Of a stretch of DNA of 64,000 bases, positions 3,400 through 18,508 are shown one piece after another. This DNA comes from Eubacteriales bacterium (GTDB lineage: Bacteria > Bacillota > Clostridia > Oscillospirales > CAG-272). The notes beneath the pieces were generated by a model. The model was not told where the DNA came from. It saw nothing but the letters and a program-made list of their open reading frames with translations, and did no database searches. The stretch lies in the NCBI GenBank assembly GCA_045576095.1, contig JAZNFP010000003.1:3993-67992 (forward strand), in the 5' to 3' direction. The position numbers were made by a program, and so were the translations under genes. Position 1 is the stretch's first letter; each line of letters begins with the position of its first letter.

Positions 3400-4150
3400 C
3401 GTCCAGAACCATCATCAGTGAAAATCCAAGGGAAACCCCGAGCACGCCGAAAAGATACCCCCGTCCCGTTTGCGATGCGGGCACGAGCTCTCTGACCACG
3501 ACGTGAAGCATCGCGCCTGCGGCAAACGAGAGCAGATACGGAAGCACGGGAGAAAGATACGCCGAAAGCAGGAGCATCACGGCACCCCCGAGCGGCTCAA
3601 CGGCACCCGAAAGCACGCCCACCCAAAACGATCGGGCGCGCGAGGCGCCGCCGCTTGCCATCGGCATCGAAACGACAGCCCCCTCGGGCAGATTCTGCAG
3701 GGCAATCCCCAAGGAAAGCGTCAGCGCCGATGCAACCGAAGCCCCTTCGGCGCCGCCAAGGAGCGCGGCGTACACAACGCCGACCGCCATCCCCTCGGGA
3801 AGGTTATGCAGCGTAACCGAAAAAAACAGCATCGAATACCGCTCGCCCCCCTGCCCTGCCTCGGACTCGGGAAAAAAGAGGTCGATTGCCGAAAGAAACG
3901 CCACGCCGAGGAGCAGTCCGACGGTTGCCGGAAACCAGCCGATGCCGCCGCTTGCCTCGGTCATTTCAATCGAAGGAACGAGAAGCGACCAGACCGATGC
4001 CGCAATCATGACCCCCGAGGCAAAGCCGAAAAGCAGCTTCTCGACCGATTCAGAGGGGCTTTTGCGAAAGAGGAATACACTCGCCGCTCCGAGCGAGGTT
4101 CCCAAAAACGGAATCAAAAGTCCGATCAGAGCAGACAAGGAAAGGGGCAT
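3386..4150 (-). CDS. ZIP family divalent-metal transporter (ZupT-like)
   Basis: Multi-TM protein with the ZIP signature repeated (HNLPEGMAVG and QNLPEGAVVS). ATG at 4150 gives MPLSLSALIG... The track ORF begins at an upstream TTG (4174) that would overlap the regulator gene. Confidence 0.8.
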   Translation of the reverse strand: MPLSLSALIGLLIPFLGTSLGAASVFLFRKSPSESVEKLLFGFASGVMIAASVWSLLVPSIEMTEASGGIGWFPATVGLLLGVAFLSAIDLFFPESEAGQGGERYSMLFFSVTLHNLPEGMAVGVVYAALLGGAEGASVASALTLSLGIALQNLPEGAVVSMPMASGGASRARSFWVGVLSGAVEPLGGAVMLLLSAYLSPVLPYLLSFAAGAMLHVVVRELVPASQTGRGYLFGVLGVSLGFSLMMVLDVAFG

Positions 4151-5166: not shown

Positions 5167-7308
5167 ATGGAAAGCAAGCCGATCCGAATTGCCCTCGCAG
5201 GAAACCCGAATTCGGGAAAAACGACTCTGTTCAACGCATTGACCGGCTCAAGTCAGTACGTCGGGAACTGGCCCGGCGTAACGGTTGAAAAGAAGGAGGG
5301 GCGGCTTCGCCACTACGGCGACGTCATCGTCACCGACCTTCCCGGCATCTATTCCCTTTCGCCCTATACGCCCGAGGAGATCGTTGCCAGGCGCTATCTC
5401 GTCGGGGAGCGCCCCGATGCGATTCTGAACATCGTTGACGGCACCAATCTGGAGCGGAATCTCTATCTGACAACCCAGCTGACCGAGCTCGGAATCCCGG
5501 TCGTCATCGTGATCAATATGATGGACGTCGTGCGTAAGCGCCACGACGAGATTGATACCGCTCGGCTCTCCCGCGCCCTCGGATGCCCGATCTTCGAGGC
5601 GTCGGCGCTGAAAAACGACGGCGTATTCGAGGCGGCAGCGGCGGCGATCCGGGCTGCGCAAGGGGGCGAGATGCTTCCCGCGCATAACTTCCGAGGAGTC
5701 GTTGAGCACGCGCTGGCGCACATCGAGGAGGCCGCCGTGCATCATTTGCCGCCCGAGAGACAGCGCTGGTATGCCATTAAGCTATTTGAGCGCGACGAGC
5801 GCGTCCTAAAGGAGCTGTCGCTTTCCGACGAGGTGCTCTCGCATCTCGAGGAGGATATCCGCTCTGCCGAGCGCGAATGCGACGACGATGCCGAGAGCAT
5901 CATCACCAACGAGCGCTACGACTATATTGCCTCGGTTCTTCGGGACTGCTACAGGAAGCGAAGCACGATCGAGAAAACGGTCTCGGATAAAATCGACCGC
6001 GTCGTTACCAACCGCTTTGCCGCCATTCCGATCTTTCTGGCAATCATGTTCCTGGTTTATTACGTTTCGGTCTCCACGCTCGGAACGATGGCAACCGACT
6101 GGACGAACGACGTCCTGTTCGGAAAACGGATCCTGCCCGCGCTTTCGGCTGGGCTTGAGGCGATCGGGTGCTGGGGTTGGCTGCGCTCACTGCTCGTGGA
6201 CGGCATCGTCGGCGGTGTCGGAGCGGTGCTCGGCTTCGTTCCGCAAATGCTGATTCTCTTTGCCATGCTCGGCTTCCTTGAGGCGTCGGGCTATATGTCG
6301 CGCGTTGCCTTCGTGCTCGACCGCGTGTTCCGCCGCTTCGGTCTGTCCGGAAAATCCTTTATCCCGATGCTCGTCGGCGTCGGATGCAGCGTTCCCGGGA
6401 TCATGGCAAGCCGCACGATCGAAAGCGAGCGCGACCGCCGCATGACGGTTATGACAACGAGCTTTATCCCCTGCGGTGCAAAGCTCCCCCTGATCGGCAT
6501 GATCGCGGGCGTTGCCTTCGGGCGCGAATCGGCGCTCGTCTCGACCGCGGCTTACCTGATCGGGATTGCCGCCGTGATTTTGAGCGGATTGATCCTCAAA
6601 AAGACCCGTCGGTTTGCGGGGGATCCCGCGCCCTTCATCATGGAGCTTCCCTCCTACCACCTGCCGACCGCAAAAAATCTGCTTCTGACGACCTGGGAGC
6701 GCGGCTGGTCCTTCATCAAAAAGGCGGGAACCGTCATTTTGCTTTCGACCGTCGTTCTCTGGTTCCTGCAAAGCTTCGGCTTCGAGGGGGGATTCGGATG
6801 GGTGAGCGATGCGAGCCACTCGATCCTCGCCTATCTCGGCAAGCCTCTTGCCGTTCTCTTTCTGCCCCTCGGCTTCGGCTTCTGGCAGGCGGCGGTTGCC
6901 TCTCTCACGGGACTGCTCGCCAAGGAAAACGTCGTTGCGACCTTCGGCGTCCTTTACGGAGCCGCCGAGGTTGCCGAAAACGGCGCCGAGATCTGGGGAG
7001 CGCTCTCGGGGGATTTCGGGAGTTCCGTCGCGGCTCTCTCCTTCCTCATCTTTAACCTGCTCTGCGCGCCCTGCTTTGCGGCAATCGGCGCGATCCGCCG
7101 CGAGATGAACAGCTCCTCCTGGACCGCCTTTGCCATCGGCTATCAATGCGTGTTCGCCTATGCGACGTCGCTCGTCGTTTACCAGACGGGGACGCTTGTG
7201 ACCTCGGGCTTTTCGGTCGCGCGGATTCCCGGGCTGATCGGCGCCGCCGCCGTCCTCGGGCTTGCCGCTTGGCTGCTCGTCCGCAGCCCCTCGCAGAAAA
7301 GGGGGTGA
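5167..7308 (+). CDS. feoB: ferrous iron transporter FeoB
   Basis: 713 aa. N-terminal G-domain ([31 protein letters not shown]) followed by a polytopic membrane domain. Confidence 0.95.
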
Positions 7309-8442: not shown

Positions 8443-8877
8443 TTACCCCCCAAGGTGCGAAATGAGAAGGTCGATCGCTTCAAGATATCCCGAAAAGCCC
8501 TTCCCCGAAATGCACCCGAGACAGGCGGGGCGCAGATAGGAAATCTGCCGAAACTCCTCTCTTGCCGAAACGTCCGAGAGATGCACCTCAACGGTCGGAA
8601 TCCCGATCGCCTTGACAGCATCGGCAATAGCAACGCTCGTATGCGTATAGGCGGCAGGATTAAAGACGATCCCGTCGTACTCCCCGATCGCACCGTGCAA
8701 AGCGTCAATCAGCGCCCCCTCGTGATTGCTCTGAAAAACCGAGTGCAGAACGCCAAGCCCGTCACAGTGCCGTCGGATCGTCTCGCACAGCTCCCGATAG
8801 CTCTCGGTGCCGTAGATTCCCGGCTCGCGGATTCCGAGCAGATTAAGGTTTGGTCCGTTTAATATCAGGATGCGCAT
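8443..8877 (-). CDS. aroQ: type II 3-dehydroquinate dehydratase
   Basis: MRILILNGPNLNLLGIREPGIYG... with HLSDV (canonical HISN) and the C-terminal AroQ pattern. The ATG at 8877 overlaps the upstream gene by 35 nt. Confidence 0.9.
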   Translation of the reverse strand: MRILILNGPNLNLLGIREPGIYGTESYRELCETIRRHCDGLGVLHSVFQSNHEGALIDALHGAIGEYDGIVFNPAAYTHTSVAIADAVKAIGIPTVEVHLSDVSAREEFRQISYLRPACLGCISGKGFSGYLEAIDLLISHLGG

Positions 8878-10087
8878 AGAAATCCTCCAGAATCGCGTCG
8901 GCACAGTCCATCGGCGTGCCGCTGTTTTCAAGTGTCAGATCGGCAAATGAGAGATAGTGCGGAAGACGGGTACGGTACATTCTCCGAAGATCGGCGCCGA
9001 GCGAAAGCGGTCTGCCCTGCCGCGAGAGCAGCTCAAGCTCGCGCAAAAGAAAATAAACCTTCCCGTTCTGCACGAGCGGATATCGGTTTTTGGCATCGAG
9101 CACGGCGCCTCCGCCGGTTGCGATAATCACTCCCGACTCCCGTCCCGCCAAGGCAATCGCCTCGCTCTCGTGACGGCGGAAGGCCGCCTCGCCTTCGGCT
9201 TCGATGATCTCGGACGGGCTTTTTCCGGTTCTCTCCTTGACGATGGTGTCGGTATCGAGCACGCGCCGACCGGTTTTCTCGGCAAGCGAGGCGGCAACCG
9301 TCGTTTTTCCGCAGCCGGGCATCCCGACGAGCACGACGTTCTGCTTTTGTCGCATCAGCTCGTGCAGAATCCGCGCGATCTCCACCTCGGCAACGGGGGT
9401 TCCCGTAAAGAAGCCTGCCGCCACCGCCGCCTGTGCAACCAGCATGGCAAGTCCGCCCGAGGCGGGTACGCGCGCGCGCTCGGCACGGTCAACGAGTCTG
9501 GTGCGAAGAGGGTTGTAGATCACGTCGAGCACGCCCGAAAGGTGCGGAAAGCGCGACGGATCCAGCAGGGCTTCTCCGTTGTGCGGATACATTCCGACCG
9601 GCGTTGCGTTGACGATCACCTCGCTGTCACAGTGCCGTGCGAGGGACTCGTAGCCGTTTTCGCCGCTCCGTGACAAAACGACGATCTCTCGCGCGCCCGC
9701 ATCACGTGCAACCGCTTGTGCGGTCAGCGAGGTGCCGCCGCTCCCGAGAATGAGCACCTTGCGCCCCGAAAAGGAAACTCCCGCGCGGTGCGCCATCCAA
9801 AGGAAGCCCGCATAATCGGTATTGTGCCCGATGAGCCGCCCCGCTCGGTTTTCAACGGTATTGACGCTTCCGATCCGCCGCGCGGTCTCGTCAAGCTCGT
9901 CAAGATACGGAATCACCGCCTTCTTATAGGGGATCGTAACGTTCAGACCCTCAAAATCGCGTGATGCAAGGAAGGCACCGAGCTCCGAGGGGGCAAGCTC
10001 CTTGAGCTCGTAGTCGTAGCGGCCGAAGCGGCGGTGAATCTCGGGCGAATGGCTGTGTCCGAGCGTCTCTCCAATCAGATAATACAT
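8843..10087 (-). CDS. aroE: bifunctional shikimate dehydrogenase / shikimate kinase (AroE-AroK fusion)
   Basis: The N-terminal ~270 aa are AroE-like (GHSHSPEIH, NVTIPYK, GHNTDYAGF, LGSGGTS). The C-terminal part is a shikimate kinase (NVVLVGMPGCGKTTVA...LDTD...ATGGGAV). Confidence 0.9.
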   Translation of the reverse strand: MYYLIGETLGHSHSPEIHRRFGRYDYELKELAPSELGAFLASRDFEGLNVTIPYKKAVIPYLDELDETARRIGSVNTVENRAGRLIGHNTDYAGFLWMAHRAGVSFSGRKVLILGSGGTSLTAQAVARDAGAREIVVLSRSGENGYESLARHCDSEVIVNATPVGMYPHNGEALLDPSRFPHLSGVLDVIYNPLRTRLVDRAERARVPASGGLAMLVAQAAVAAGFFTGTPVAEVEIARILHELMRQKQNVVLVGMPGCGKTTVAASLAEKTGRRVLDTDTIVKERTGKSPSEIIEAEGEAAFRRHESEAIALAGRESGVIIATGGGAVLDAKNRYPLVQNGKVYFLLRELELLSRQGRPLSLGADLRRMYRTRLPHYLSFADLTLENSGTPMDCADAILEDFYAHPDIKRTKP

Positions 10088-10098
10088 CGCCTCACCCC

Positions 10099-11235
10099 TT
10101 ATAGCTCGGCGTAGCAGCCGAGATAGCCGATGCCCCCAACCGAATACTCGAGATCGTCAAGCACCGATGCCGCAGCCTCGCGGCTCGGCGCCTCAAAGTC
10201 CAGATAGAACCGCACCTCGAAATCGGTTCCGACAATGGGGCGGGATTCAATTTTGAGCAGATTGCAGCCGCCGATCGCAAGCTTAGAGATAACGGCGTAA
10301 AGCGATCCCGGCGTGTGCGGAAGCGTCAGAGTCAGCGAAATCCGCGTGGCTCCCCCGTAGATGGCTCCGCCCTTTGCGATGCAGATAAAGCGCGTAAAAT
10401 TCCCGTCGCTGTTCTGGATCTTAACCGAAAGCCGCTCGAGCCCGTAAAGCGCCGCGCAGGCGGCGGAGGCAATCACGGCAACGTCGCGGCGGCCAAGTGA
10501 GACGAGCTCCGCGGCGGCAAGCGCGGTATTCTCGGCAGGGATCGCCCTGATCTCGGGATGTGCCTCAAGGAAGCGGCTGCACTGTCCGAGCGCCTGGGGA
10601 TGCGAACGGATCTCGCGGATCTCGCCGAGTCCGACTCCGGGGGGAACGAGAAGTGCATGATCAACCTTCAGCTTCAGGGAGCGGACGATGCGGAAGCGAT
10701 GCGACTGCATCAGATCGAGCACGGCGCTGACCGAGCCGTGCGTGCTGTTTTCGATCGGAAGAACGCCAAAGTCGCAAAGACCGCTCTCTACCGCCGAGAA
10801 AACGCCCTCAAAGCTCTTGAAATAGACGATATGCTGCTCCCCGAACAGCCGATCGCAGGCGATCTGTGAGTACGCCCCCTCACTCCCCTGACAGGCGACC
10901 CGTCCGCTTCTCGGAAATTCCGAGGGGGTTTTTTGAGCAGACTCCAAAAATTCTCTTGAAAGGCTCCCCTTCGGTGCAATAAGACGCGACTGATAGGCGC
11001 GACTAATCTCCATCATCGAGGAAAAAAGGCTTCTTGCATAAGCGCAAAGCTCGCTCGGAACGCTCTCGGCAACCTCTGCCAGAATTTCGCGCTCGCGGGC
11101 AGGATCAAGGATCGCAAGCCCCTTTTCCTTTTTATACGCGGCAACCTCTGCCGACAGGCGCATCCTCTCGCAAAAGAGCGCTCTCATTTCGCCGTTGATG
11201 CGGTCAATATCGGCTCGGCATTTCTCGAGATTCAT
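10099..11235 (-). CDS. pheA: bifunctional chorismate mutase / prephenate dehydratase with a C-terminal ACT domain
   Basis: From the ATG at 11235: MNLEKCRADIDRINGEMRALFCERMRLSAEVAAYKK (chorismate mutase helix), then RVACQGSEGAYS...PIENSTHGSV (prephenate dehydratase), then an ACT-like tail. The track ORF's 53-aa Arg-rich extension is discarded. Confidence 0.85.
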   Translation of the reverse strand: MNLEKCRADIDRINGEMRALFCERMRLSAEVAAYKKEKGLAILDPAREREILAEVAESVPSELCAYARSLFSSMMEISRAYQSRLIAPKGSLSREFLESAQKTPSEFPRSGRVACQGSEGAYSQIACDRLFGEQHIVYFKSFEGVFSAVESGLCDFGVLPIENSTHGSVSAVLDLMQSHRFRIVRSLKLKVDHALLVPPGVGLGEIREIRSHPQALGQCSRFLEAHPEIRAIPAENTALAAAELVSLGRRDVAVIASAACAALYGLERLSVKIQNSDGNFTRFICIAKGGAIYGGATRISLTLTLPHTPGSLYAVISKLAIGGCNLLKIESRPIVGTDFEVRFYLDFEAPSREAAASVLDDLEYSVGGIGYLGCYAEL

Positions 11236-12322
11236 TCTTTTCCTCCTCGGTCTCCAAAATCGCTTCCAGCAAAACGATCGAGGCAATCGCCTCAACGCAC
11301 GGCACCGCGCGAAGGGCAATGCAGGGATCGTGCCTGCCCCCGACTCTGACCGTCGTCTCCCGCATCGCTGAAAGCGAAACGGTTTTCTGTTCACGCGAAA
11401 TCGACGCCGTCGGCTTCATGGCAACGCGGAAGAGCAGCGGCATTCCGGTCGAAATTCCGCCGACGATACCGCCGGCATGATTGCTTTCGGTTGCAACGCG
11501 GCCGTCTCTGATGCAAAAGGGGTCGTTATGTGCCGAGCCGCTCATGGCGGTGGGGGCAAAGCCGTCTCCGCACTCGATGCCGCGCACGCCGCCGAGCACG
11601 AAGATTGCACCGGCAAGCAGATTTTCAAGGCCCCGTCCGAGCGGCGAGCCGATCCCGGCAGGCAATCCGATCGCTCCGCATTCAACGATGCCGCCGATCG
11701 AATCCCCCGATTCCGCAGCAGAACGGATCTCGCGCTTCATCGCTTCCCCGACGGCGTCGTCCAAAACCGGAAAGTCCTTCCTGCCCGGGGAAAGCAGCTC
11801 GTCCTCTGTGAGTGCAAGGGTGAGGTATCTGCGCTCACGGATTCCCCCGACCGCCTCAAGATGCGCACCGACCGAAATTCCGCGAAGCGAGAGCGCCTGC
11901 CTTGCAAGCTCGCCAACGGCAACAAGAGGAGCAGTCAGGCGCGCCGAAAAATGGCCGCCGCCGCGGAGATCAATCTCCCTGCCGTAGCGCATTTGCGCCG
12001 TATAGTCGGCATGTGAAGGACGGGGTGTGTCGCAAAATCCGTGATAATCCCCCGAGCGTTGGTTTTGGTTCAGAATTCTTACCGTGATCGGATCCCCCGT
12101 CGTAACCCCCGACGCGATGCCCGACAAAAAGATCGGCTCGTCGCTCTCACGGCGAGGCGTTGCAAGTGCGCCGCCGCCGCGGCGGCGCTCCATCGCATGG
12201 GAAAGCGCCTTGAAATCAACGGCAAGCCCCATCGGGAAGCCGGAAACCGTTGCTTCAACGAACGCACCGTGCGACTCGCCGACAAGCGAGACCGAAAGGC
12301 GTTTTCCAAATTCAGATCTCAT
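11204..12322 (-). CDS. aroC: chorismate synthase
   Basis: FGKRLSVSLVGESHGAFVEATVSGFPMGL...RPSHADY...GGGHFSARLTAP are typical AroC blocks. Confidence 0.9.
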   Translation of the reverse strand: MRSEFGKRLSVSLVGESHGAFVEATVSGFPMGLAVDFKALSHAMERRRGGGALATPRRESDEPIFLSGIASGVTTGDPITVRILNQNQRSGDYHGFCDTPRPSHADYTAQMRYGREIDLRGGGHFSARLTAPLVAVGELARQALSLRGISVGAHLEAVGGIRERRYLTLALTEDELLSPGRKDFPVLDDAVGEAMKREIRSAAESGDSIGGIVECGAIGLPAGIGSPLGRGLENLLAGAIFVLGGVRGIECGDGFAPTAMSGSAHNDPFCIRDGRVATESNHAGGIVGGISTGMPLLFRVAMKPTASISREQKTVSLSAMRETTVRVGGRHDPCIALRAVPCVEAIASIVLLEAILETEEEKNESREMPSRY

Positions 12323-13574
12323 GGGACTCTCCTTTCAGGCTTGCAAAATCATCAAAGAAGGCGGGATAGGATTTTGATACGGCGTCGGCTCCGCAGATGA
12401 CCGTCTCGCCGTCGCAAAGCGCACGCGCAACCGCCGCCGCCATGACGATCCGATGGTCGCCCGCACCGTCGATCACGCCGCCCGAAAGGCGCTTGCCGCC
12501 GCGCACGGTCATGCCGTCCTCGGTTGCCCAAACGCTTGCGCCAAGGGCGCGAAGCATGGCGTGGGTCGAGGAAATGCGGTCGCTCTCCTTATGGCGGAGA
12601 CGGGCGCCGCCAAAGAGATGGCTTTCGCCCTCGCACGCCGAGGCGAGCACGCACAGGATCGGAAAAAGATCGGGGCATCCCGATACGTCGAAATCAAAGG
12701 CAGAAAGCCGCTCGGGGCGCACGACCCGAAGCACCCCGTTTTCAAAGCGGGGCGAAGCCCCGGCAAGCCGAAGCGCGTCGAGCACGGCGCGGTCGGCCTG
12801 CAGGCTCGCTTCCGAGAGTCCCGCGACCGAAACCTCTCCGCCGATCGCGCCCGAAACGAGGTGGAAGGCTGCGTTCGACCAATCCCCCTCAACGGTGTAT
12901 CGGCCGGGCGAGCGATAGCCGGCATCGGGAGCAAGACGGTACTCGCCCCCCGCGGTGCGAACCGAAACCCCGAATGCCGACAGCACCGAGCACGTCACGT
13001 CAACGTAGGCGGCGCTCTCAAGAGGCGTCGTCAGAGCAACCGTCGCCTCTCCGTCAAGGAGCGGCAGGGCAAGCAAAAGCCCCGTGACGAACTGTGAGCT
13101 GATATTTCCGGCAAGCTCGTAGCGCCCCGCACCGAGAGTCCCTCGGATACGGAGCGGAAGCCCCTCGCCGATCACCTCGACGCCATGCGCCTTAAGCTCC
13201 TCGGTCAAGGGTGCGAGCGGTCTTTCGCCGAGCCGTCCGCGCCCGAGAAAGGTCGTGTCAACCCCCATTGCGGCGGCAACCGGAATGAGAAAGCGCAGAG
13301 TCGAGCCGCTCTCCCCGGCATCAACCGTGGCGCGTGCCGGCGGCTCCGCGCGCCGCACGGTATACCCAAGGGGCGTGCGTTGAATCTCGGCACCGAGCGC
13401 AGAGAGGCAGGAAACCGTTGCGGAAATATCCTCCGAGATGCCGCAAAAGCAAAGCTCGGTCGGCTCGTCGCACAGAGAAGCCGCGATCAGGGCGCGGTGC
13501 AGCTCGCTTTTCGAGGCAATGGCGTTCACCCGCCCGAAGCACGCGGGGGAAACGATCCGACGTTTGACAGGCAT
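12312..13574 (-). CDS. aroA: 3-phosphoshikimate 1-carboxyvinyltransferase (EPSP synthase)
   Basis: From the ATG at 13574: GRVNAIASKSELHRALIAASL, LGERPLAPL, GDHRIVMAAAV. AAAGGAG SD. Confidence 0.9.
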   Translation of the reverse strand: MPVKRRIVSPACFGRVNAIASKSELHRALIAASLCDEPTELCFCGISEDISATVSCLSALGAEIQRTPLGYTVRRAEPPARATVDAGESGSTLRFLIPVAAAMGVDTTFLGRGRLGERPLAPLTEELKAHGVEVIGEGLPLRIRGTLGAGRYELAGNISSQFVTGLLLALPLLDGEATVALTTPLESAAYVDVTCSVLSAFGVSVRTAGGEYRLAPDAGYRSPGRYTVEGDWSNAAFHLVSGAIGGEVSVAGLSEASLQADRAVLDALRLAGASPRFENGVLRVVRPERLSAFDFDVSGCPDLFPILCVLASACEGESHLFGGARLRHKESDRISSTHAMLRALGASVWATEDGMTVRGGKRLSGGVIDGAGDHRIVMAAAVARALCDGETVICGADAVSKSYPAFFDDFASLKGESHEI

Positions 13575-13609
13575 ACGGCACTCCTTTCGTTTTCTGAGAA
13601 ATGGGGAGA

Positions 13610-14647
13610 TCAGATTCGGAAATACCGCTCGAGCTCGGACATTGGTATCCGCTCGGCGCGGCATTCGCCAAGACGTCTCGGCAAAATGAGCGTGATCTCG
13701 TCTCCCATGCGCTTTTTATCGCTCTTCATGGCGGAAATCAGCTCCTCGGTGGTGGCAAGCACAGCGTTTGGCAAGCCCCGATAGGTGATGCACCCCACCA
13801 GATCGTCAAGGAAGTTCTCCCGACAGTAGCCCATGCGAAGCGCGCCGCGCGTGGCAACGATCATGCCGACGGCAACCGCCTGTCCGTGGGTAAATTCATG
13901 CTCGGTCAGCTTCTCGATCGCGTGCCCGACGGTGTGCCCGAAATTGAGCAGCGCTCTGACGCCCTCGTCGCGCTCGTCGGCGCGAACGACGTCCCCCTTA
14001 ATGGCAACCGAGCGGCGGATGACCTCTTCGATATCGTGATCGGCGTAAAGCATCTCGAAAAGCCCTCTGTCAAAGGCAACGCCGTACTTGATCGCCTCTG
14101 CCATACCGTCGGCGTACTGCTCCTCTGTGAGCGTCTGAAGAACGTCGGGGTCGCAAAGCACGAGCGACGGCTGCCAGAAGGCACCGATCTGGTTCTTGTA
14201 GCCGAGGAGATTGACACCGGTTTTTCCGCCGACCGATGAGTCGAGTGCGGCAAGCAGCGTCGTTGGAATCTGCACGAAGCGAATGCCGCGCAGATAGGTC
14301 GCGGCGGCAAAGCCCGCGACGTCCCCGACGATTCCGCCGCCGAGCGCGACGACGAGATCGGCGCGCGTGATCTCCCCGCGAAGCATCGCCTCCTGCAGGC
14401 GCACGACCGTCTCGGGGGTTTTGTTTTCTTCGCCGCCCGGGAAGGAGAGACGAAGCACGCGGTGCCCCGCCGACGCAAGCGAGCGCTCAACGCGGTCCCC
14501 GTAGAGTCGATCAACCGTCCCGTCGGAAATCAGAGCAACCCGAAGAGTGCCGAGTCCCCTTTGGATCAGCGGACCGACCAAGTCAAGAAGGCCTCGCTCG
14601 ATCAGGACGTCATAGGGCGCCTTGGTTTCAATACGTACGTGTTTCAT
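13610..14647 (-). CDS. aroB: 3-dehydroquinate synthase
   Basis: GEENKT, GGGIVGDVAGFAAATYLRGIRFVQIPTTLLA, FGHTVGHAIE. GGAGGA SD. Confidence 0.9.
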   Translation of the reverse strand: MKHVRIETKAPYDVLIERGLLDLVGPLIQRGLGTLRVALISDGTVDRLYGDRVERSLASAGHRVLRLSFPGGEENKTPETVVRLQEAMLRGEITRADLVVALGGGIVGDVAGFAAATYLRGIRFVQIPTTLLAALDSSVGGKTGVNLLGYKNQIGAFWQPSLVLCDPDVLQTLTEEQYADGMAEAIKYGVAFDRGLFEMLYADHDIEEVIRRSVAIKGDVVRADERDEGVRALLNFGHTVGHAIEKLTEHEFTHGQAVAVGMIVATRGALRMGYCRENFLDDLVGCITYRGLPNAVLATTEELISAMKSDKKRMGDEITLILPRRLGECRAERIPMSELERYFRI

Positions 14648-14682
14648 TTCCGTCCTCCGCCGCTCGTTCGTTTTCTTCCATA

Positions 14683-14711
14683 ATTATACTTGGATTTTCT
14701 GGAGCTGTCAA
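14683..14711 (-). promoter_or_regulatory. consensus sigma-A promoter internal to the aro operon, in the tyrA-aroB gap
   Basis: The minus strand reads TTGACA-GCTCCAGAAAATCCAAG(17)-TATAAT. The -35 hexamer contains the tyrA TGA stop codon. Confidence 0.55.
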
Positions 14712-15544
14712 CCGCCATATTCCCTCTTTCGCGCCGCCCCTCTCGAGAGCAGCTCACGGAGACCCGCCTCATCCCCCTCGGAGATGACCGCGCGGAACTG
14801 TGAAAGGCTCCCGATCAGGCGGTCAAGCTCGCAAAGCAAGGGCTCGCGGTTCGAGATGAGAATCTCACTCCACATCTCGGCGTTGATTTGGGCAACTCTC
14901 GTCATATCCCGGAAGGATCCTGCCGAAAAGCCTCGCTGCTCCTCTGCCGTCGGAGAGGAGATATAGGCGCTTGAGAGCACGTGTGCAAGCTGCGAGGTAT
15001 AGGCGATGATACGGTCGTGATCGGCAGGGGACGAGAAGATGACCTTGGAAAAGCCGAGGGAGAGAAAAAACGCCTTGAGGTCGGAAAGCACCTCGATGGA
15101 CACGTCGCCCTCGGGCGTGAGAATCATCGAGGCGCCGATGAAGAGATCGTCCCGCGCCGCCTCAATGCCCCAGACCTCGCGCCCCGCCATCGGATGTCCT
15201 CCGACGAAATGAAAGCCGTAGGTGCGCGAAAGCTCGCCCGCCGCCTCGCAGATCTCGCGCTTGATGCCCGCGAGGTCAACAACGACAGTGTGCGGAGAGA
15301 GCTCCCCTGCGTGCTCCTTCAGCCATGCGATTGCGGCGCGCGGATAGAGCGCCAGCAAAAGAAGATCCACCTCGCCGAGCGAGCTTTCGTCGAGCAGCCC
15401 GTCGTAGAGACCGAGCAGCCGAGCGCGGTCAAGCGTCTGCGGCGAGCGCTCCGAGACGAGAATCCGATCGCTCGGTCGGTCGGCTCGGATCGACATGGCA
15501 AACGAGCCGCCGATCAGTCCGAGTCCAACGATTCCGAAGGTCAT
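14708..15544 (-). CDS. tyrA: prephenate dehydrogenase
   Basis: From the ATG at 15544: MTFGIVGLGLIGGSFA (Rossmann fold), GGHPMAG. ATGA overlap with the aroF stop. Confidence 0.85.
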   Translation of the reverse strand: MTFGIVGLGLIGGSFAMSIRADRPSDRILVSERSPQTLDRARLLGLYDGLLDESSLGEVDLLLLALYPRAAIAWLKEHAGELSPHTVVVDLAGIKREICEAAGELSRTYGFHFVGGHPMAGREVWGIEAARDDLFIGASMILTPEGDVSIEVLSDLKAFFLSLGFSKVIFSSPADHDRIIAYTSQLAHVLSSAYISSPTAEEQRGFSAGSFRDMTRVAQINAEMWSEILISNREPLLCELDRLIGSLSQFRAVISEGDEAGLRELLSRGAARKREYGG

Positions 15545-16542
15545 AGCAGGCACCCCCGTACCGCGTTCACGCGCTTCATCAGCTCGGCGAAGGCATCGGG
15601 TGTCAGTGACTGCGGACCATCGCAAAGCGCGGCGGCAGGATCGTTATGCACCTCGATCATCAGTCCGTTTGCCCCTGCCGCAACGGCGGCAAGCGCCATC
15701 GGAGCAACGTAGCGCGCATAGCCCGTCGCGTGAGAGGGATCGACGACGATCGGCAGGTGCGTCATCTGACGGAGCGCCGGGATTGCCGAGAGATCGAGCG
15801 TGTTCCGCGTTGCCGTCTCGAAGGTTCGGATGCCGCGCTCACAGAGAATGACCTCTTCGTTTCCTCCCGCCATGATGTACTCGGCACTCATGACAAGCTC
15901 CTGCAGAGTGCTCGAAAGTCCACGCTTTAAGAGAATCGGCTTGCGAAGCGCGCCGACCTCCTTCAGCAGCTCGAAGTTCTGCATATTCCGCGCGCCGATC
16001 TGGATCACGTCAACCTCCTCGAAAAGCGGAATCTGCGACGGATCCATCAGCTCGGTCACGATCGGAAGCCCGGTTCTGCGCTTTGCCTCAAGGAGCATAC
16101 GAATCCCCTCGGCGCGAAGCCCCTGAAAGGCGTAGGGCGAGGTTCTCGGCTTGAAGGCGCCGCCGCGCAGAAGCCCCGCACCCGATGCCTTCACCGCCTC
16201 TGCCACCGCCGAAAGCTGTGCCTCGGACTCGACCGAGCAGGGGCCCGCGATGACGGCAAAGGAGTCACCGCCGATCTCGGCGTCACCGATCCGAACGACG
16301 GTGTCATTCGGATGAAACTTGCGGTTTGCCTTCTTGTAGGGCTCCTGCACACGCTTGACGTCCTCAACGATCTCAAGTGCACGCAAAAGATCAATGTCGA
16401 TATGCGAGGTGTCGCCGATCAGACCGAGAATCGTTCTGTGTGCGCCCTCCGTCGCCTGTACCGAAACCCCCTGCTTCCCGAGCCATTCGACCAAAAGCCC
16501 GATCTGCTCCTTTTTCTCCTGATCCTTCAAAATAACGATCAT
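15541..16542 (-). CDS. aroF: 3-deoxy-7-phosphoheptulonate (DAHP) synthase, class I-beta, with an N-terminal ferredoxin-like regulatory domain
   Basis: GPCSVES...KPRTSPY...GLPIVTE...DPSH. An ~80-aa N-terminal domain as in Thermotoga-type enzymes. The ATG at 16542 has AAAGGAG 8 nt upstream; the track start is at 16560. Confidence 0.9.
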   Translation of the reverse strand: MIVILKDQEKKEQIGLLVEWLGKQGVSVQATEGAHRTILGLIGDTSHIDIDLLRALEIVEDVKRVQEPYKKANRKFHPNDTVVRIGDAEIGGDSFAVIAGPCSVESEAQLSAVAEAVKASGAGLLRGGAFKPRTSPYAFQGLRAEGIRMLLEAKRRTGLPIVTELMDPSQIPLFEEVDVIQIGARNMQNFELLKEVGALRKPILLKRGLSSTLQELVMSAEYIMAGGNEEVILCERGIRTFETATRNTLDLSAIPALRQMTHLPIVVDPSHATGYARYVAPMALAAVAAGANGLMIEVHNDPAAALCDGPQSLTPDAFAELMKRVNAVRGCLL

Positions 16543-16578
16543 ACCCTGACTCCTTTGCATTTAAGACTTGAGATTCCG

Positions 16579-16617
16579 CCGAAAAAGAAAACTCCCACAG
16601 CGTTTGCTGTGGGAGTC
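16579..16617 (-). terminator. intrinsic terminator (candidate attenuator) in the aroF 5' leader
   Basis: The minus strand reads CTCCCACAGC-AAAC-GCTGTGGGAG (perfect 10-bp stem) followed by TTTTCTTTTTC. It ends ~38 nt before the aroF ATG. Confidence 0.75.
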
Positions 16618-16636
16618 GGCAAGCGATATCTGCTTT

Positions 16637-16741
16637 TTATCTGCCGTTCTGACCACACAACGCCGAAAAGGCTCTGCCCGAATAATCGTAGGCAAAGCCA
16701 AAGTAAAAATAATACTTCGCGTCGTTGTGCAGAACCGTCAT
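16637..16741 (-). CDS. candidate Tyr/Phe-rich leader peptide of the aro operon (34 aa)
   Basis: My own translation: MTVLHNDAKYYFYFGFAYDYSGRAFSALCGQNGR, stop TAA. GGGGAAG lies 5 nt upstream of the ATG. Residues 10-20 are 8/11 aromatic. It sits between the promoter and the terminator and is below the 60-aa track cutoff. Confidence 0.6.
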   Translation of the reverse strand: MTVLHNDAKYYFYFGFAYDYSGRAFSALCGQNGR

Positions 16742-16780
16742 TTCATCTTCCCCTTCGGAATCTCCTTGTGGATTGATGAA

Positions 16781-16809
16781 ACTATAGCACTCTGAGCGCG
16801 ATTTGTAAA
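16781..16809 (-). promoter_or_regulatory. predicted sigma-A promoter of the aro leader and operon
   Basis: On the minus strand, TTTACA-17 nt-TATAGT. Confidence 0.55.
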
Positions 16810-16866
16810 GTGGTTTTTTTCAAAGTTCACAAAAAATTCATATTTAAAGAGCGGCACGGCACGGAC

Positions 16867-16895
16867 TTTACAAAGGCTTTCCTTTATGATATAAT
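16867..16895 (+). promoter_or_regulatory. predicted sigma-A promoter of yifB/comM
   Basis: TTTACA-17 nt-TATAAT. Confidence 0.55.
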
Positions 16896-16963
16896 TGTGA
16901 ACAAACGGCAACAGAAAATCAACCCTCCGCGGCGAACAGCCTGCGGAGACTCGGAGGTATGAG

Positions 16964-18508
16964 ATGCTCTCGAAAATTTATTCCGCAGGGCTCGTCGGAA
17001 TCGACGGCTTTGAGGTCACGGTCGAATGCAGCGGCTGGGATCGGATCCCCACCTTCGAGCTCGTCGGTCTTCCCGATGCGGCGGTGAAGGAAGCCAAGGA
17101 GCGCGTGCGCGCCGCCTGCGAAAACACGGGGATCTTCTTCCCGTCGATGGAGCTTTGCGTCAATCTGGCGCCCGCAAGTCTGAAAAAGGAGGGCTCGTCC
17201 TTTGATCTCGCCATCCTTGCCGGTATCCTGCAATGCGACGGAAAAATTCCGCGCTCGCTCTCCTTTGAGGACAAGTGTCTGATCGGCGAGCTTTCGCTCT
17301 CGGGCGAGCTGCGCGCCGTGGACGGCGTGCTTCCGATGAGCCTTGCCGCCAAGGCGGCGGGACGGCGCGAGCTTTTCGTTCCGATTGAAAACGCCAAGGA
17401 GGCGGCGGTTGCCTCGGGCATCACGGTGTACGGCGTTGGCCACGTGCGCGATCTTTTGCTCCATCTCCGAGGAGAACGGAGGCTCGAGCCGACGACCTTT
17501 GACGTTTCGACCTTCCGCGCCTGTCCGAGCAAGACCGCCCCCGATTTCTCCGAGGTACGAGGGCAAGCAAGGGCAAAGCGCGCGATGGAAATCGCCGCGG
17601 CAGGCGGGCACAACGTCCTTTTGATCGGGCCGCCCGGCTCGGGCAAGTCCATGCTTGCAAAGCGCCTGCCGAGCATCCTTCCCGATCTCACCTTTGATGA
17701 GGCGATTGAGATCACGAAGGTGCATTCGGTCTTGGGGCTGGTCCGTCGGGAAAACCTCGTCACGAGCCGACCCTTCCGCTCTCCGCACCATACGGTCAGC
17801 CCTGCCGGCATGATCGGCGGCGGCAGCTATCCGCAGCCGGGCGAAATTTCGCTCTCGCATCACGGCGTTCTCTTTCTCGACGAGCTCCCCGAATTTCCGA
17901 AGCAAATCACCGAGGCGCTCCGCCAGCCGCTTGAGGACGGCTGCGTAACCGTCACGCGCGCGCGGCAAAAGGTGACCTACCCCTCGTCGTTCATGCTTGT
18001 TTGCGCCATGAACCCCTGCCGATGCGGCTACTACGGAGACCCCTCGCGCGAATGCACCTGCACACCCGAGTCGGTCAGACGCTATCTCTCACGCATCAGC
18101 GGTCCTCTGCTTGACCGCATTGATATTCAGGTTGAGGTCCCTGCCGTCAGCTACGACGAGCTCAGCGCCCCGCCCTCGGACGAGGAGCGCTCCGAGACCG
18201 TCAAGGCGCGTGCCGATGCCGCAAGGCGCTTTTCGGCAAGGCGCGCCGAGCAGCTCGGCGAGACGGCAACGCCGAACGCGCGCCTCACCTCGGCACAGCT
18301 GCGCCGTCATTGCAGACTCGACAGCGGCGCCGAGGCGGTTCTTCGCTCGGCATTCGAGGAGCTCGGTATGTCGGCACGCGGACACGACAGGATCCTGCGC
18401 GTGGCACGAACGATCGCCGATCTTGCAGAAAGCGAGCTGATCTCGGCAAGGCATATTGCCGAGGCGATCGGACTCCGCTCGCTGGATCGCAAATATTTTG
18501 CTCATTAA
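16964..18508 (+). CDS. yifB: YifB/ComM family Mg-chelatase-like AAA+ ATPase
   Basis: [23 protein letters not shown]..., Walker [24 protein letters not shown], and a C-terminal ChlI-like region. Confidence 0.9.

Follow-up and report, generated by a model that had tools for sequence, protein, structure and literature searches.

A putative tyrosine- and phenylalanine-responsive leader-peptide attenuator upstream of the aroF operon in Clostridia

The aroF leader and its operon

How transcription of the aromatic amino acid operon is regulated is the question raised by the region directly upstream of aroF in a Clostridia bacterium (Eubacteriales bacterium, assembly GCA_045576095.1, contig JAZNFP010000003.1), of which a 64-kb stretch, positions 3,993 to 67,992, was analysed as a whole and is referred to here as the window. 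This region carries a promoter, a short open reading frame (ORF) rich in tyrosine (Tyr) and phenylalanine (Phe) codons, and an intrinsic terminator. Comparison with related genomes supports the interpretation put forward in an initial annotation of the window, and the element is very probably a ribosome-mediated leader-peptide attenuator that senses Tyr and Phe and controls the aroF-tyrA-aro-pheA operon. All leader coordinates refer to the minus strand of the window, and the elements on which this reading is built are the following.

16781..16809, minus strand: promoter of the leader transcript, with the -35 TTTACA at 16809-16804, a 17-nt spacer and a TG-extended -10 TATAGT at 16786-16781
16750..16755, minus strand: Shine-Dalgarno (SD) sequence AAGGGG, 8 nt before the leader ATG
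16637..16741, minus strand: leader ORF of 34 codons plus a stop codon (16639-16637), encoding MTVLHNDAKYYFYFGFAYDYSGRAFSALCGQNGR
16682..16714, minus strand: proposed regulatory codon run, codons 10-20 (YYFYFGFAYDY), with 5 Tyr and 3 Phe, 8/11 aromatic
16580..16617, minus strand: intrinsic terminator (segments 3 and 4), a 12-bp stem GACUCCCACAGC/GCUGUGGGAGUU with the loop AAAC (16617-16590)
16589-16580, minus strand: U tract of the terminator, UUCUUUUUCG
8843..16542, minus strand: operon presumed to be regulated, aroF, tyrA, aroB, aroA, aroC, pheA and aroE/aroK (Pfam scan)

Most of these elements had been described in the initial annotation and were recovered where it had placed them. The TTTACA-17-TATAGT promoter matches 10 of 12 consensus positions in a sigma-70-type promoter scan, with a TG before the -10, and transcription would be expected to start near 16774. 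The leader ORF has the annotated length and composition, with 5 Tyr, 4 Phe and no tryptophan (Trp) residues in the peptide, and its 8/11 aromatic run (16714-16682) is the proposed site of ribosome stalling. The hairpin with the AAAC loop, annotated as a perfect 10-bp stem, is extended by two more pairs to 12 in all, 7 of them G-C; it begins about 20 nt past the leader ORF, is followed by TTCTTTTTCG, and the stem folds at -21.9 kcal/mol on its own. The aroF start was likewise found about 38 nt past the U tract, with an ATG at 16542 and an AAGGAG SD at 16555-16550, 8 nt upstream; the ORF list also holds an alternative in-frame aroF ATG upstream, at 16560, and the alignments with homologues begin at the first residue encoded from 16542. 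The operon content was confirmed by the Pfam scan, which detected tyrA and pheA and no trp genes in the operon. The aroF product is a 3-deoxy-D-arabino-heptulosonate 7-phosphate (DAHP) synthase with an FXD (ferredoxin-like) domain, pheA encodes a chorismate mutase joined to a prephenate dehydratase, and the last gene of the operon is an aroE/aroK fusion. The gene order aroF-tyrA-aroB-aroA is common to most related loci.

Conservation among related aroF loci

The comparison set was obtained from an AroF protein scan with one genome per GTDB species, which gave 80 loci with 62-72% identity, mostly labelled as Oscillospiraceae, Lachnospiraceae or unclassified Clostridia metagenome-assembled genomes (MAGs), with a few isolates. 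When the window is included, a stop-free stretch of 8 codons with at least 5 Tyr, Phe or Trp codons is present in 64 of the 81 upstream regions, compared with 1 of 81 after shuffling. The 43 leaders that passed strict automatic criteria were curated and used in the analyses that follow. They are ATG-started ORFs of 14-42 aa (leader start codons are ATG and rarely TTG), composed of 19% Phe, 15% Tyr and 0.2% Trp, the latter corresponding to 2 codons in about 1080. Tyr and Phe are each encoded by both of their synonymous codons (TAT 66, TAC 100, TTT 169, TTC 37), and the aromatic codons are concentrated in the coding frame, with 374 occurrences versus 124 and 153 in the other two frames, while stop codons number 0 in the coding frame versus 51 and 81 in the others. 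The aromatic run is the sole conserved part of the peptide, whose length and C-terminus vary; the related peptides are alike in kind and differ in detail, as illustrated by MKRNIFAAEYFYFYFINKS, MNILNFAAEYFYFYFFGFIQRG, MSILVFAAAYYYFYFMCTKSKSDFCCN and MSSSRFGYYYYYVLCSLCRA.

The signals for transcription and translation are conserved together with the run. The SD sequences of the 43 leaders pair with the 3' end of the 16S rRNA with a mean of -7.05 kcal/mol, versus -1.86 kcal/mol for other ATGs of the same regions (p = 9e-18). A promoter matching at least 9 of 12 consensus positions, often a perfect TTGACA-17-TATAAT, is found in 39 of the 43, with the -10 located about 20-45 nt before the leader ATG. 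In the relatives, the leader ORF is followed by a terminator of 10-16 bp that begins 14-60 nt past the stop codon and leaves 14-100 nt to aroF (302 nt in a single outlier), always on the same strand. The small ORF and its aromatic run are thus kept in orthologous leaders, and the frame, the start codon with its SD, the promoter and the terminator recur with them.

The initial annotation had also drawn attention to a mini-ORF (ATG AAA TGA, ATGAAATGA) that overlaps the leader start. It is present on the minus strand at 16738-16746, out of frame with the leader and with poor SD spacing; since only 2 of the 43 leaders have a comparable ATG, out of frame and no more than 12 nt ahead of the leader start, it is probably incidental.

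Leaders similar to that of the window also precede aroF in five MAGs with labels outside the Clostridia (L039, L053, L054, L055 and L050). Using the covariance model R1 described below, Victivallaceae MAGs gave matches with E = 4.6e-4 and 3.6e-5, and an Alloprevotella MAG (L050, on a 3.7-kb contig) gave E = 1.3e-5, while the matches in MAGs labelled as Thermoguttaceae were weak (E = 0.67 and 0.018). These copies could be the result of horizontal transfer together with aroF, or could come from mis-binned Clostridia contigs.

RNA architecture of the leader

The leader RNA is strongly structured. The 236-nt leader of the window folds with a minimum free energy of -94.1 kcal/mol (z = -7.7), and none of 200 dinucleotide shuffles was as good. 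The fold is organised in an outer helix (P1), an inner hairpin region (P2) and the terminator, a layout that recurs in single-sequence folds of many members of the family, and in the window it is made of the following parts.

16719..16735, minus strand: segment 1, 5' strand of P1, GUUCUGCACAACGACGC, covering codons 3-8 and ending 4 nt before the first Tyr codon
16670..16718, minus strand: inner hairpins (P2 region), enclosed by P1 in the folds and containing the aromatic codons and downstream sequence
16646..16663, minus strand: segment 2, 3' strand of P1, GCGUUGUGUGGUCAGAAC, partner of segment 1 in the predicted anti-antiterminator
16618..16645, minus strand: small spacer hairpin, GGCAGAUAAAAAGCAGAUAUCGCUUGCC, which includes the stop codon of the leader and lies inside the antiterminator helix whenever that helix forms
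16662-16650 (CGUUGUGUGGUCA) with 16617-16605 (terminator 5' arm), minus strand: candidate antiterminator (2:3), -12.3 kcal/mol

In the family, the 5' strand of P1 is formed by the codons just before the aromatic run, and its 3' strand, typically UUUUGCUGCAAA, lies 40-60 nt downstream. In P2 the aromatic codons themselves form the 5' side and a purine-rich partner the 3' side; this helix covaries, UACUAUUAC:GUAAUAGUG being replaced by UACUUUUAC:GUAAAAGU (family alignment, helices 5-6). The sequence of the spacer hairpin is not kept in the family, in which the spacer is variable. Over the 43 leaders the pairing of segment 1 ends at the first aromatic codon, with a median gap of -1 nt that is due in part to the search region having stopped there.

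With a plain MAFFT alignment as input, RNAalifold returned the terminator and no other helix, P1 being put out of register by the variable spacers; folds of the single sequences, a structure built by hand and a covariance model were therefore used in its place. The model, R1, was built from 18 well-aligned leaders, excluding that of the window, with P1, P2 and the terminator specified. It matches the window at 16581-16749 on the minus strand over the full model length, with 47.8 bits and E = 5e-8, and no second copy was found by R1 in the 64-kb window. A further 40 copies were found at E < 1e-3, every one of them directly upstream of aroF. In the resulting 41-sequence alignment 84.8% of the cells are paired, versus 69.9% in shuffles (none of 500 reached the observed value), and the covariation score is 0.505, versus 0.221 for shuffles and 0.09-0.15 with partners shifted by 1-3 columns. 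Because the alignment had been fitted to the structure, these figures are somewhat inflated, and the signal is still clear against the slid controls and in the compensatory pair types. Such changes are seen in 5 of the 6 pairs of the P1 main helix and at 11 of 11 pairs of the terminator stem, where 94.6% of the cells are paired. What the comparison of sequences shows is the presence and conservation of every element, base pairs that covary in P1, P2 and the terminator, and a segment 2 that is complementary to either of its two partners, as described below.

A regulatory RNA of a type already catalogued was sought with Rfam. At the gathering score no family was detected in the whole window, and at E <= 10 the region 16300-17100 gave only chance matches resembling small nucleolar RNAs, with neither a T-box nor Phe_leader among them; the 20 member loci scanned gave no Rfam match, and neither in these nor in 20 non-member loci was a T-box found before aroF. 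The T-box, Phe_leader, the leu/phe leader and the known riboswitches were consequently rejected as candidates, as there was nothing relevant in the scans of the window, of its local region and of the 40 loci, and the view of the initial annotation that no T-box is present stands. A true T-box (93.6 bits) was detected in the locus L072 at 5259-5503, downstream of aroF-tyrA and a short pheA-like match, in a locus that has no aromatic leader; the scan would therefore have caught T-boxes before aroF.

The strong structure may also be read in another way, with a translation-independent RNA, either a riboswitch or a TRAP-like protein site on the UAC/UUU repeats, controlling the terminator and the ORF being incidental. 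The exceptional folding energy (z = -7.7), the covariation of P1 and P2, the pairing of the aromatic codons within P2 and their arrangement as a UACUUU repeat with triplet periodicity are all in line with such an RNA. It would need no in-frame ATG (rarely TTG) with a strong SD at 20-45 nt from the promoter, yet these signals are conserved, and the coding frame is free of stop codons when the other frames are not. Moreover, substitutions preserve the class of amino acid, through Tyr/Phe swaps and synonymous third positions, and not the nucleotides, and the Tyr/Phe composition tracks the operon content. The conserved positions correspond to codons and switch segments, without a conserved unpaired junction or loop of the kind that forms ligand pockets, and no Rfam family was matched. 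We consider this explanation very unlikely.

A nascent-peptide arrest of the TnaC, SecM or ErmCL type, possibly caused by free Tyr or Phe and not by uncharged tRNA, is less likely still. Aromatic residues are common in arrest peptides, and a partly conserved motif, FAAEYFYFYF, is found in many members. The recurrence of FAAE is explained by the RNA, because the codons UUU GCA GCU GAA form the 5' strand of P1 (UUUGCAGCUGAA), which covaries with its partner; the window has LHNDAK in place of the FAAE region and the pairing is kept. The run varies in length, order and spacing, unlike strict arrest motifs, and an arrest provoked by a plentiful amino acid would lead to induction by Tyr or Phe, which is the wrong sign for a biosynthetic operon.

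Least likely of all is a gene for a functional aromatic-rich micropeptide, with a hairpin behind it that is a common terminator free of regulation or serves RNA stability, and with transcription of aroF starting elsewhere or resulting from constitutive leak-through. Small peptides of hydrophobic or aromatic character may have functions of their own and the ORF is real, with good translation signals, but its length (14-42 aa), everything outside the run and the position of the stop codon relative to segment 2 are not conserved, no leader peptide matches Pfam or NCBIfam above threshold, the element always lies directly upstream of aroF on the same strand, and no separate promoter was found by the promoter scan between the terminator of the window and aroF.

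One further structure was noticed in the window. On the minus strand, 16746-16764 (GAGAUUCCG..GGGGAAGA, in the 5' untranslated region and SD) can pair over a long range with 16571-16589 (UUUUCUUU..CGGAAUCUC, the U tract and beyond), with -24.3 kcal/mol and z = -3.5 relative to shuffles. As a mechanism of the family this helix was rejected, being specific to the window (family mean z -0.18); in the window it might shut off translation of the leader or stabilise readthrough transcripts.

Terminator and antiterminator

An attenuator of this kind relies on a segment that can choose between two partners. Segment 2 of the window is complementary both to codons 3-8 (16735-16719) and to the 5' arm of the terminator (16617-16605). 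When each locus was compared with its own shuffles (n=43), the duplex of segments 1 and 2 had a mean z of -1.8 and that of segment 2 with segment 3 (5' arm plus loop) a mean z of -2.0, both far from zero, and the two duplexes share nucleotides of segment 2 in 81% of the loci. In most members the apex of the terminator 5' arm and the loop read (C)GCAG(U/C)GAAA(C/U), a sequence that is similar to segment 1 and can pair with segment 2. The motif shared by segment 1 and the terminator arm, GCAGC, has become CACA(A/G)C at both places in the window, and segments 2 and 4 are changed to match. The initial annotation had named a pairing of TGTGG with CCACA as its best guess while finding no convincing antiterminator; that guess turned out to be the core of the pairing of 16662-16650 with 16617-16605, for which the support is moderate.

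The loops of the terminators are unusually conserved, as GTGAAAC or GTAAAAC (family alignment columns 264-275), which is unexpected for a plain terminator. This conservation would be explained if the loop and the apex of the arm pair with segment 2 (UUUUGCUGC) as an antiterminator.

The switch was modelled by folding transcripts cut before the 3' arm of the terminator, with a ribosome footprint imposed. In the family average, the fraction of the terminator 5' arm that is paired upstream is 0.70 with the footprint on the run, versus 0.60 with no ribosome and 0.52 with the ribosome at the stop codon (p = 0.004 and 0.0003). The contrast is greater in the window, with 0.79 for the footprint on the run, 0.34 for no ribosome and 0.32 for the stop codon; in these truncated folds the window antiterminator is formed only when the footprint is at Tyr10 or Tyr13.

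Proposed mechanism and amino acid specificity

From these data we infer that ribosome stalling, a kinetic choice of structure and a response of readthrough to Tyr and Phe make up the regulation of the operon. Transcription would begin about 35 nt ahead of the ATG of the leader, whose strong SD would then be bound by a ribosome. When Tyr and Phe are plentiful, the ribosome would pass the 8 aromatic codons and reach the stop codon at 16639-16637; once the run is cleared, segment 2 would be either covered by the ribosome or paired again with segment 1 in P1, the terminator would form and transcription would stop about 40 nt before aroF. When charged tRNA-Tyr or tRNA-Phe is scarce, the ribosome would stall at the start of the run (16714-16682). 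Since segment 1 ends at the first aromatic codon, the footprint of the stalled ribosome would mask segment 1, and would also melt the inner hairpins; the freed segment 2 could then pair with the terminator 5' arm before the 3' arm is transcribed, and the polymerase would read into aroF. Among the 43 leaders the stop codon precedes segment 2 in 20, falls inside it in 11 and follows it in 12, and because its position varies in this way both routes to termination, ribosome coverage and P1 pairing, seem to be used.

Specificity for Tyr and Phe is supported by an operon that makes both of these amino acids and carries no trp genes, by the near absence of Trp codons from the leaders and by a Tyr share that follows operon content. 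The share of Tyr among the leader aromatics is 0.48 when tyrA is the next gene (n=39) versus 0.27 when aroB or pheA is next (n=13), with p = 1e-4, a value that is not corrected for phylogeny and that is obtained from a grouping in which tyrA could lie further down some operons. The leader of an aroF-pheA operon (L039) is Phe-only, and those of two stand-alone aroF genes (L003 and L052) are Tyr-only or nearly so.

Besides this limit on the Tyr-share comparison, several observations weigh against the proposed attenuator, and most of them concern the antiterminator, which is its weakest link. In a fixed register the antiterminator is 69% paired in the family, versus 67% in column shuffles (22 of 500 are as high) and 35-51% with slid partners, and its covariation is modest, 0.218 versus 0.186 for shuffles (7 of 500); since this test is marginal, the predicted antiterminator is regarded as moderately supported. 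Members of the family probably use different registers, and a clearer picture is given by the per-locus duplex test. The 2:3 duplex of the window itself is not significantly better than shuffles (z = -0.9), and in the simple model a ribosome placed late in the run, at Tyr20, leaves segment 2 unfreed. The mutually exclusive structures anticipated in the initial annotation are seen to the extent that the antiterminator forms in truncated transcripts with a stalled ribosome; in full-length equilibrium folds the terminator is kept in every case, even when the footprint is imposed. A purely thermodynamic switch was rejected for that reason, and the decision must therefore be kinetic and co-transcriptional, as in other attenuators. 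Finally, the reach of the attenuator within the operon may be shorter than the gene order implies, given that the promoter sequence at 14711-14683, described below, may allow the distal genes aroB-aroA-aroC-pheA-aroE/K to escape it, leaving mainly aroF-tyrA under control.

Other promoters of the locus

A perfect consensus promoter, TTGACA-17-TATAAT, is found at 14711-14683 on the minus strand, where it overlaps the tyrA stop codon and is followed by GGAGG and the aroB ATG at 14647. On the other side of the leader, a comM/yifB-like gene is encoded on the plus strand (ATG 16964), divergent from the leader. Its own promoter, TTTACA-17-TATAAT with a TG, is located at 16867-16895 on the plus strand, so that the two promoters stand back to back in a 420-nt intergenic region.

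Significance

The sequence family to which the window leader belongs is well populated and apparently uncatalogued, while the mechanism is a textbook one and the association with the gene has precedents; being textbook, the mechanism opens no new principle. Whether the family has a wider meaning is a more balanced matter. We see about even chances that it is a large, uncatalogued family of Tyr and Phe attenuators to which, in place of the T-box, control of the shikimate/aro operon mainly falls in Clostridia of gut and rumen, with a codon mix tuned to the operon and with copies that have moved together with aroF into non-Firmicutes genomes (MAGs labelled as Victivallaceae and Thermoguttaceae). 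If so, the family would span Oscillospiraceae, Lachnospiraceae, Acutalibacteraceae, Christensenellaceae and Anaerovoracaceae, and the tuning would consist of Tyr-rich leaders with tyrA, Phe-only leaders with aroF-pheA and Tyr-only leaders before stand-alone aroF.

The leader fills a gap in the regulatory annotation of the aromatic operon of many abundant, mostly uncultured gut and rumen Clostridia, for which Rfam, Pfam and NCBIfam are blank, and adds a well-populated case to the few classical attenuators of the leader-peptide type known from Firmicutes. A Tyr/Phe mix that appears to follow the controlled genes amounts to a natural experiment on the codon-stalling model. Possible uses include compact Tyr/Phe-responsive parts for the engineering of anaerobes, and a marker that predicts if a MAG regulates its own synthesis of aromatic amino acids.

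Comparison with known attenuation systems

The T-box (RF00230) is the usual amino-acid-responsive leader of Firmicutes biosynthetic operons, and shares with the window element the choice between terminator and antiterminator and the genomic position; it differs in sensing the uncharged tRNA directly, with no ORF. Leader peptides have also been predicted in Firmicutes, one for His that belongs to hisS/hisZ in Bacilli (PMC2965389) and one for Leu that belongs to leuA in Streptococcus and Lactococcus (PMC5314783). These are likewise cases of classical attenuation alongside T-boxes, and belong to other amino acids, genes and sequence families. The novelty suggested by the initial annotation, which had set this arrangement against the T-box and TRAP control classical for Firmicutes, was therefore overstated, the more so as two precedents exist upstream of aroF itself, uORFC-13-1 and aroR. 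No earlier description of the Clostridia aroF leader was found in the full-text literature, which is weak evidence given that subscription journals are mostly outside that search.

The closest precedent in a Firmicutes-related lineage is uORFC-13-1, a motif with 24 representatives, all located before aroF and reported only from Acholeplasma and environmental sequences of unidentified origin (Brewer et al. 2021, PMC8632094). Its parts are promoter-like boxes, a ribosome-binding site with a start codon, U-rich sequence that encodes Phe, an intrinsic terminator next to it and a further paired element, and the motif was proposed to be a ribosome-mediated attenuator (PMC8632094). The window element resembles it in its position directly upstream of aroF, its upstream ORF with Phe codons and its adjacent terminator. 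The two differ in that uORFC-13-1 is described as having "at least one" Phe codon, with Tyr unmentioned, whereas the Clostridia family has mixed Tyr/Phe runs and extends over many orders. The alignment of uORFC-13-1 is absent from Rfam 15 and its likeness to the Clostridia family was judged by description; its reported range suggests that the two are not trivially alignable.

The closest functional precedent, compared by description, is the aroR leader of Corynebacterium glutamicum, which precedes the aroF operon with a Phe-Tyr-Phe motif, where stalling relieves termination and a response to Phe limitation has been obtained experimentally (Neshat et al. 2014, cited in PMC11802643). As summarised in that citing paper, aroR is also a leader peptide gene directly before an operon that begins with a DAHP synthase gene, and its regulatory residues are Phe and Tyr. 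It belongs to the Actinobacteria and has 3 regulatory codons, versus runs of 5-11 in the Clostridia leaders, and the Tyr supply is reported there not to matter (PMC11802643), while in the Clostridia leaders Tyr codons are as common as those of Phe and follow tyrA.

The pheL-pheA attenuator of E. coli has no detectable similarity to the window element in sequence or structure, no match to Phe_leader having been obtained in Rfam at E <= 10. It controls pheA alone, whereas the window element is predicted to respond to two amino acids and to control the common pathway together with the Tyr and Phe branches; the regulatory codons of the window also double as the 5' strand of P2, and its host is a Gram-positive anaerobe. 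The logic of the two is nevertheless alike. In pheL, as in trpL and hisL, the four-segment scheme of alternative pairings (1:2, 2:3 and 3:4) has its regulatory codons at or beside segment 1, and in both pheL and the window element, codons for the end product come in a run, after which an intrinsic terminator closes the leader immediately ahead of the first gene.

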